DNA of 64,000 nucleotides from Escherichia coli (GTDB lineage Bacteria; Pseudomonadota; Gammaproteobacteria; Enterobacterales; Enterobacteriaceae): the NCBI RefSeq assembly GCF_003334405.1, contig NZ_QOWM01000003.1, one strand, 5' to 3'. Under the pieces are notes generated by a model. The model had not been told where the DNA came from. It saw only the letters and a program-made list of their open reading frames with translations, and did not search any database. Positions 13,067-13,098 of the stretch are shown piece by piece. The position numbers and the translations under genes were made by a program. Within the stretch, counting starts at the first letter, position 1; every line of letters begins with the position of its first letter.

Positions 13067-13098
13067 TGTAAAACGCAGATTATTATCTGTGTTTTACA
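13067..13098. promoter_or_regulatory. candidate operator: 13-bp inverted repeat with 6-bp spacer upstream of ydjL
   Basis: TGTAAAACGCAGA-ttatta-TCTGTGTTTTACA (12 of 13 positions complementary), 79-110 bp upstream of the ydjL ATG in an unusually long 369-bp intergenic region. Confidence 0.35.

Follow-up and report, generated by a model that had tools for sequence, protein, structure and literature searches.

The 64-kb window analysed here, the whole stretch of DNA from which all positions below are counted, is Escherichia coli chromosome and is 100% identical to strain FORC 064 across the region tested. Its + strand carries, in order, msrB, yeaC (12535-12807), a 369-bp spacer, ydjL (13177-14253), ydjK, ydjJ, ydjI, ydjH, ydjG, ydjF (19655-20413) and ydjE; a K-12 coordinate equals 1874509 minus the window position. 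The ydj operon encodes a sugar-acid pathway that has been characterised in part. The ydjF product contains an HTH_DeoR domain (5.4e-17) and a DeoRC domain (3.2e-49), the pair that constitutes both domains of the DeoR/GlpR family, and is the presumed binding protein of the sites described below. One 3' end mapped by Adams et al. falls at K-12 1854008 (window 20501), past a hairpin in the ydjF-ydjE spacer, and ydjF thus appears to be a separate transcription unit.

The ydjL-ydjE block (window ~12808-21950) is accessory, being absent from about 1,090-1,100 of 5,426 complete E. coli genomes (about a fifth), and its prevalence is uneven among phylogroups (PMC9602453). In the genomes that lack the block, yeaC adjoins pncA with a breakpoint ~10 bp or less past the yeaC stop codon, so that the yeaC-ydjL spacer forms part of the accessory block itself. 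The left, Escherichia-specific part of this spacer contains a 16-nt direct repeat, TAAGTCCCAGTCCGAT (12896-12911) and TAAGTCTCAGACCTAT (12954-12969), whose copies are 81% identical and lie 58 bp apart. Elsewhere in the window, yeaE (8873-9727) is a pseudogene with an internal stop according to the annotation of the identical strain FORC 064.

The yeaC-ydjL spacer (12808-13176) holds the inverted repeat that an initial annotation of this DNA had singled out as a candidate operator, TGTAAAACGCAGA (13067-13079)-ttatta-TCTGTGTTTTACA (13086-13098). As that annotation had it, 12 of the 13 positions pair between the two 13-bp arms, and the palindrome sits within the 369-bp spacer, 79-110 bp ahead of the ydjL start codon (ATG at 13177). 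The sole mismatch is G:T. In a repeat search the arms lengthen to 14 nt (93%) around a 4-nt loop. In first-order Markov simulations, inverted repeats of at least 12/13 with a loop of at most 12 are expected 0.88 times per 64 kb, and when 369-bp spacers of matching composition are simulated, 0.25% contain one (p≈0.0025). Other inverted repeats of at least 12/13 in the window lie at 9728-9760, 10693-10725, 21940-21972, 8814 and 58353; several of these, found where genes end (yeaD/gapA, gapA/msrB, ydjE/pncA), are probably terminators.

Further genomic copies of the palindrome had been proposed as something to look for; by blastn, none of the 5,426 complete E. coli genomes yields a second copy, and the region is present once per genome in 4,333 of them. 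The arms are identical in all sampled E. coli strains except one, strain L65, in which the right arm reads TTTTGCAG. The loop base at 13081 is T in the window, a minority allele, and C in K-12 and most strains.

A search with YdjL recovered orthologues from 24 further species of enterobacteria, with amino-acid identities of 87-99%. When the 170 bp upstream of ydjL are aligned across the resulting 25 enterics, the genera are unrelated until position 13052, where a conserved block begins abruptly and continues to the start codon. The elements of this block follow one another in the order TATTTGTGATCT (box 1), GTTGTGAAATGCAGAT, a variable stretch of 4-5 nt, ATCTGTGTTTTAAAGATTT, 7 bp, TTGACC, 17 bp and AAGTAT. 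A motif that was not conserved upstream of ydjL in other Enterobacteriaceae would, on the initial annotation's own terms, have spoken against an operator; the block is kept in the 24 other species. Its last elements make up the predicted ydjL promoter (13108-13136, + strand), with a -35 hexamer TTGACC (13108-13113), a 17-bp spacer, a -10 hexamer AAGTAT (13131-13136) and a predicted start at ~13143-13144. The TTGA of the -35 is invariant, its fifth base is C in 24 of the 25 enterics, and the position of the -10 is conserved. AAGTAT matches TATAAT at only 3/6 positions.

The inverted repeat itself resolves into two sites of 15 bp, inverted about 13082/13083. The promoter-proximal site O1 (13086-13100, TCTGTGTTTTACAGA) is strong, matches TCTGTG-N3-CACAGA at 11/12 positions and is centred at ~-51 from the predicted start. 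The upstream site O2 (13065-13079, GTTGTAAAACGCAGA), which contains the left arm, is weaker (8/12 to the consensus) and is centred at ~-72, placing the two centres 21 bp, or two helical turns, apart. O2 and O1 are mirror images of one another and each is a dyad by itself, which is why together they read as one 32-bp palindrome; the single mismatch of that palindrome is the position at which O2 (CGCAGA) differs from the consensus (CACAGA). In all 10 enteric loci with a called site, 7 bp separate the end of O1 from the ydjL -35; no site was called in Budvicia, nor in Candidatus Symbiopectobacterium, where a different promoter was picked. A second promoter-like match in E. coli, TTTACA-17-AAAAAT (13093-13121), overlaps O1.

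Comparison across genera separates the long palindrome from the short sites. Arm-to-arm Watson-Crick pairs number 13/15 in E. coli and E. whittamii and 12 in Escherichia sp. E1V33, and fall to 8-11/15 in most other genera, with Raoultella at 12, Intestinirhabdus at 6 and Enterobacillus at 5. In Serratia and Enterobacillus, O1 is a perfect 10+10 dyad, AAATCTGTG-TTT-CACAGATTT. Enteric loci with a recognisable second site have it 21 bp upstream of the proximal one, and a second site at an offset of 20-21 bp (gap 28) is found in Serratia, in Klebsiella grimontii, in three Firmicute loci and in an Atopobiaceae locus. Long complementarity is thus specific to Escherichia whereas the 15-bp TCTGTG-N3-CACAGA units are general, and we rejected one long dyad for one dimer. 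Of the earlier reading, the operator gains support from its enteric conservation and from the same promoter position in Firmicutes, but a single dyad with 13-bp arms serving one HTH dimer does not hold. In Candidatus Symbiopectobacterium the O2 position is occupied by a different perfect dyad, TCTTCA-ATG-TGAAGA, and O1 keeps TCTGTG...ACAGA.

The same arrangement extends beyond the Enterobacteriaceae. YdjL orthologues with 76-85% identity are encoded in Lachnospiraceae, Eubacteriaceae, Anaerococcus, Enterococcus alishanensis, Megamonas and an Atopobiaceae genome (loci L024-L041, L043 and L047). Every locus of sufficient length, in both the enteric and the non-enteric group, carries the other ydj enzymes together with a YdjF orthologue, the non-enteric YdjF proteins being 40-56% identical. 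The non-enteric ydjL promoters are good promoters of the sigma-A/sigma-70 type (TTGACT or TTGAAA, 17 bp, TAnnAT) and are preceded by one to three TCTGTGAAACACAGA-like dyads, for example TCTGTGAAACACAGA (Atopobiaceae) and TCTTTGAATCAAAGA (a Lachnospiraceae genome). Between the proximal dyad and the -35 lie 8 bp, and there is often another copy 20 bp upstream of the first; the Atopobiaceae locus has a third, which overlaps its -35. Some Firmicute copies instead have a spacing of 13 bp (TCTG-N5-CAGA), which makes the 15-bp dyad a provisional recognition unit. The layout common to Firmicutes and Enterobacteriaceae, with cluster and DeoR-type regulator travelling together, points to cross-phylum horizontal transfer in which enzymes, regulator, operator and promoter geometry moved as one.

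A weight matrix was built from 11 sites taken from non-enterobacterial (Firmicute/Atopobiaceae) loci only and was used to scan both strands of the 64-kb window, ~128,000 positions in all. Among these positions O1 ranks first (score 20.5), followed by two further sites, OI (16.1) and OF (15.8), with O2 in 34th place (8.8). OI (13485-13499, TCTGTGTTGTACAGA) is intragenic: it falls inside the ydjL coding sequence (+308..+322), is identical to O1 at 14/15 positions and has its centre 399 bp downstream of that of O1. OF (19566-19580, TCTGTGATTCAAACA) ends 7 bp upstream of the ydjF -35. The scan of the ydjF-ydjE spacer found no site. The fourth-best match, TCTGTGAAATAAACC at 31480-31494 (score 15.5), falls within gdhA on the opposite strand and was set aside as an operator, being probably a chance match.

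These ranks bear on the idea that the palindrome is a chance or neutral structure with no function. In favour of such an origin, the sequence is rich in A+T and only one genus has the long dyad in perfect form; yet the probability for the spacer is ~0.0025, the cross-genus footprint is strong, and it is O1 that a matrix from other phyla places first, which leaves a chance origin barely credible.

A further element, AAACACAGA at 13158-13166, overlaps the ydjL ribosome-binding site and is a perfect complement of the O1 left half. It was considered as a third operator and rejected, since it reaches a half-site score only (-1.9) and Klebsiella carries AAACAAAGG in its place.

Of the 1,036 15-nt windows in ydjL, those that start at positions 301-314, which cover OI, vary least across the 25 enterics, even though mean pi at the third codon positions of ydjL is 0.43. 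The two amino-acid replacements seen within OI both keep the motif: Thr->Ala gives GCAGA, in which CAGA is kept, and Thr->Lys gives CAAAGA, a half-site variant that is also used elsewhere. Firmicute YdjL orthologues have nearly the same peptide at this point, written in other codons and with Glu for Thr, and the site is absent from them; the OI sequence is thus not forced by the protein. In these alignments, then, synonymous sites within OI are constrained.

The initial annotation had also pointed to a recurrence of TCTGTG in the ydjG-ydjF spacer. The hexamer indeed recurs there, at 19544 and 19566, and would by itself recur by chance; the copy at 19566 lies within the conserved 15-mer that we term OF. 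The conserved ydjF promoter that follows (19588-19616, + strand; TTGAAA, 17-bp spacer, GATAAT) is listed by Shimada et al. (PMC3946193) as a constitutive RpoD promoter of ydjF. The arrangement of OF with this promoter is kept in 22 enteric loci, and its gap of 7 bp to the -35 is that of O1 at the ydjL promoter. This position suggests autoregulation of ydjF.

Box 1 (13055-13062, TGTGATCT) stands at the upstream boundary of the conserved block and is conserved to the same degree as O1. Its GTGA is invariant and its remaining positions nearly so in the 25 enterics, even where O2 has diverged. Box 1 equals the left half of the CRP consensus, in a position overlapping O2, and the arms of the palindrome contain TGTAAA...TTTACA, the TyrR half-sites. 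Such resemblances would be accounted for if the palindrome were the operator of some other regulator, whether CRP, a TyrR-like protein or an unlinked factor. A CRP site (TGTGA-N6-TCACA) was nevertheless rejected because only the left half, TGTGATCT, is perfect, the right half being TTGTA/TTGTG with 1-2/5 matches and unconserved. A TyrR box (TGTAAA-N6-TTTACA) was rejected likewise, the hexamers lying 20 bp apart instead of 6 and reading TGTGAA / TTTAAA in other genera. The motif is also present in Firmicutes, which carry ydjF but neither CRP nor TyrR, and a copy stands at the ydjF promoter; on these grounds control by another regulator is highly improbable. Box 1 on its own could be half of a CRP site, or else one more half-site of the regulator that acts at O2 and O1. 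A 22-bp CRP site at box 1 would be centred near -81 and overlap O2, so that YdjF might act in part by excluding CRP, a possibility that serves as a lead only.

The long complementarity of the arms also admits an explanation at the level of RNA, namely that the inverted repeat is a hairpin (a leader element, a weak intrinsic terminator or an insulator) on transcripts that come from msrB-yeaC or from a start within yeaC. The + strand RNA folds with 19 pairs at -19.3 kcal/mol (z -5.6), as against -14 kcal/mol for the - strand, because the sole mismatch becomes a G:U pair in the + sense, and a consensus scan flags the structure as terminator-like. Among the enteric sequences, positions that are not Watson-Crick paired are G:U 44 times in the + sense versus 6 in the - sense, but this excess derives from few, phylogenetically linked events, and several lineages have incompatible changes. 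The element at the ribosome-binding site, AAACACAGA, is complementary to the right arm and could pair with it in read-through RNA.

The start within yeaC is that used by Adams et al., who cloned a ydjL '5' UTR' beginning at window 12700. The same authors observed strong bicyclomycin-sensitive (Rho) termination ~144 nt into ydjL (window ~13321, K-12 1861188) and found a ydjL fusion to be expressed more highly in rhoR66S; with termination at that point, transcription from upstream is stopped before OI. Their Term-seq tables contain no 3' end within K-12 1861300-1861599, and none at the palindrome, the nearest being 1861655 (window 12854), the 3' end of yeaC. A hairpin, ATCCCCTT...AAGGGGAT (12813-12854), which has no U-tract, lies directly past yeaC. 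An Rfam covariance-model search of 12500-13600 on both strands gave no match at E<=1. We rejected an intrinsic terminator at the palindrome, as the stem is A-U rich, with 4 G-C pairs of 15, and the U-tract tail (AUUUAAUGUU / ATTTAATGTT) is poor.

The pattern of conservation also argues against an RNA hairpin. Conservation begins just ~12 bp upstream of the hairpin, the genes further upstream vary by genus, and the conserved promoter lies downstream of the hairpin with none upstream, which places the hairpin outside the operon's own transcript. In distant enterics, moreover, the long-arm pairing falls to 5-8/15 while the O1 dyad becomes perfect. We accordingly regard an RNA hairpin as the function of the repeat as quite improbable.

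A narrower proposal concerns Escherichia alone, in which the operators may have been reshaped into a near-perfect 34-nt hairpin with a second job as a nucleic-acid structure. Three substitutions are specific to Escherichia; all of them raise the pairing of the arms, and one shifts O2 away from the operator consensus. These pairing-improving changes, together with the G:U excess, keep a secondary structural role in this genus alive, though we give it a low probability. Such a hairpin could stop or process read-through RNA from msrB-yeaC, which in this genus shares the strand and is separated from ydjL by a mere 369 bp; alternatively, a cruciform could modulate YdjF binding.

We favour a reading of the palindrome as two adjacent operators, weak O2 and strong O1, for the cluster-encoded DeoR/GlpR-family regulator YdjF, and judge it to have a probability of about 0.68 on the sequence evidence. 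Four related sites are present, they are conserved, they hold a fixed geometry to two promoters, and they co-occur with ydjF. From this co-occurrence across phyla and from the site at the regulator's own promoter, we infer that YdjF is the binding protein; it would probably also repress and form a loop, as considered below. O2, O1, OI and OF constitute a well-supported candidate operator set for this orphan regulator.

The most probable course of events can be drawn from the layout of these sites. Immediately upstream of the ydjL -35, two YdjF dimers or a tetramer would fill O2 and O1 on the same helical face, and without inducer such an oligomer would bind the two sites cooperatively. YdjF bound at O2/O1 would then loop across ~400 bp to OI, enclosing and silencing the ydjL promoter; an activator bound to the overlapping TGTGATCT box might be displaced as well. 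Looping cannot be a universal mechanism, since OI is absent from Firmicutes. The usual inducer of DeoR-family proteins is a phosphorylated pathway intermediate, and a compound of this kind would be expected to release YdjF.

The sign of control deserves separate consideration, as O1 and O2 lie upstream of the -35, a position that is typical of activators too. YdjF might, together with its effector, bind O2/O1 (~-72 and -51) and recruit RNA polymerase to a promoter whose -10 is weak. The sites keep their fixed distance upstream of the -35 in two phyla, the enteric -10 AAGTAT is weak (3/6), the ydjL promoter is silent in culture, and the family has at least one activator in FucR. Most DeoR-family members, however, are repressors. 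The Firmicute -10 sequences are strong (TACAAT, TATTAT, TAATAT) and should not need activation, and both the intragenic OI and the third Atopobiaceae site over the -35 suit repression. Activation by YdjF is consequently unlikely, and repression is favoured because the Firmicute promoters are near consensus, an Atopobiaceae site covers the -35 and an intragenic operator is present. A ydjL promoter fragment has been reported to be inactive in culture and induced in the mouse gut (PMC6561318), behaviour that is expected of a specifically controlled catabolic operon and that fits either sign of control. A literature search for an experimental start of the inducible ydjL promoter found none, the only start found being the one inside yeaC (Adams et al.).

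Several well-studied systems combine multiple operators in a comparable way. GlpR, which governs the glp regulon of E. coli and like YdjF belongs to the DeoR/GlpR family, uses several tandem dyad operators on one helical face near the promoter, in addition to operators inside a structural gene. The likeness extends to the expectation of a sugar-phosphate effector. GlpR half-sites, however, are of the TGTTCGAT type, as opposed to TCTGTG in a 15-bp dyad, and the proximal GlpR site lies over the -10 or the start, whereas the putative operator O1 of ydjL is upstream of the -35. DeoR, the founder of the family, acts at deoCABD through the palindromic operators O1/O2/OE, which it binds cooperatively with looping over hundreds of bp; its 16-bp operator, TGTTAGAA.TTCTAACA, overlaps the -10 regions and has no similarity to TCTGTG-N3-CACAGA. 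In the gal operon, GalR represses by looping between OE, upstream of the -35 (~-60), and OI, inside the first structural gene, neither of which covers the promoter. This geometry resembles that of O1 and OI at ydjL, where looping is proposed from the layout only. GalR is a member of the LacI family and forms a loop of ~114 bp that needs HU, in contrast to the DeoR-family membership of YdjF and the 399 bp separation at ydjL. The ydj operator sequence is unrelated to the operators of GlpR, DeoR and GalR.

Ishihama's survey places YdjF among the uncharacterised DeoR-family factors, and the main text of a 2021 ChIP-exo survey makes no mention of it. Literature searches for YdjF binding sites, a regulon or a footprint (SELEX, ChIP-exo) found none. 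YdjF is thus an E. coli transcription factor still without a known target, and the operator set provides a testable handle on a gut-induced operon. The four sites O2, O1, OI and OF and the consensus TCTGTG-N3-CACAGA can serve as reagents, in the form of binding probes, point mutants of reporters and a means of screening for inducers; an inducer screen that uses a binding assay could reveal the substrate of the ydj pathway. One natural variant falls within O1. In the O157:H7 strain Balcarce_14.2 (L065), the equivalent of 13099-13100 is altered from ACAGATTT to ACATGTTT (CAGA to CATG), which destroys the CAGA of the O1 right half and leaves the 13-bp arms unaffected.
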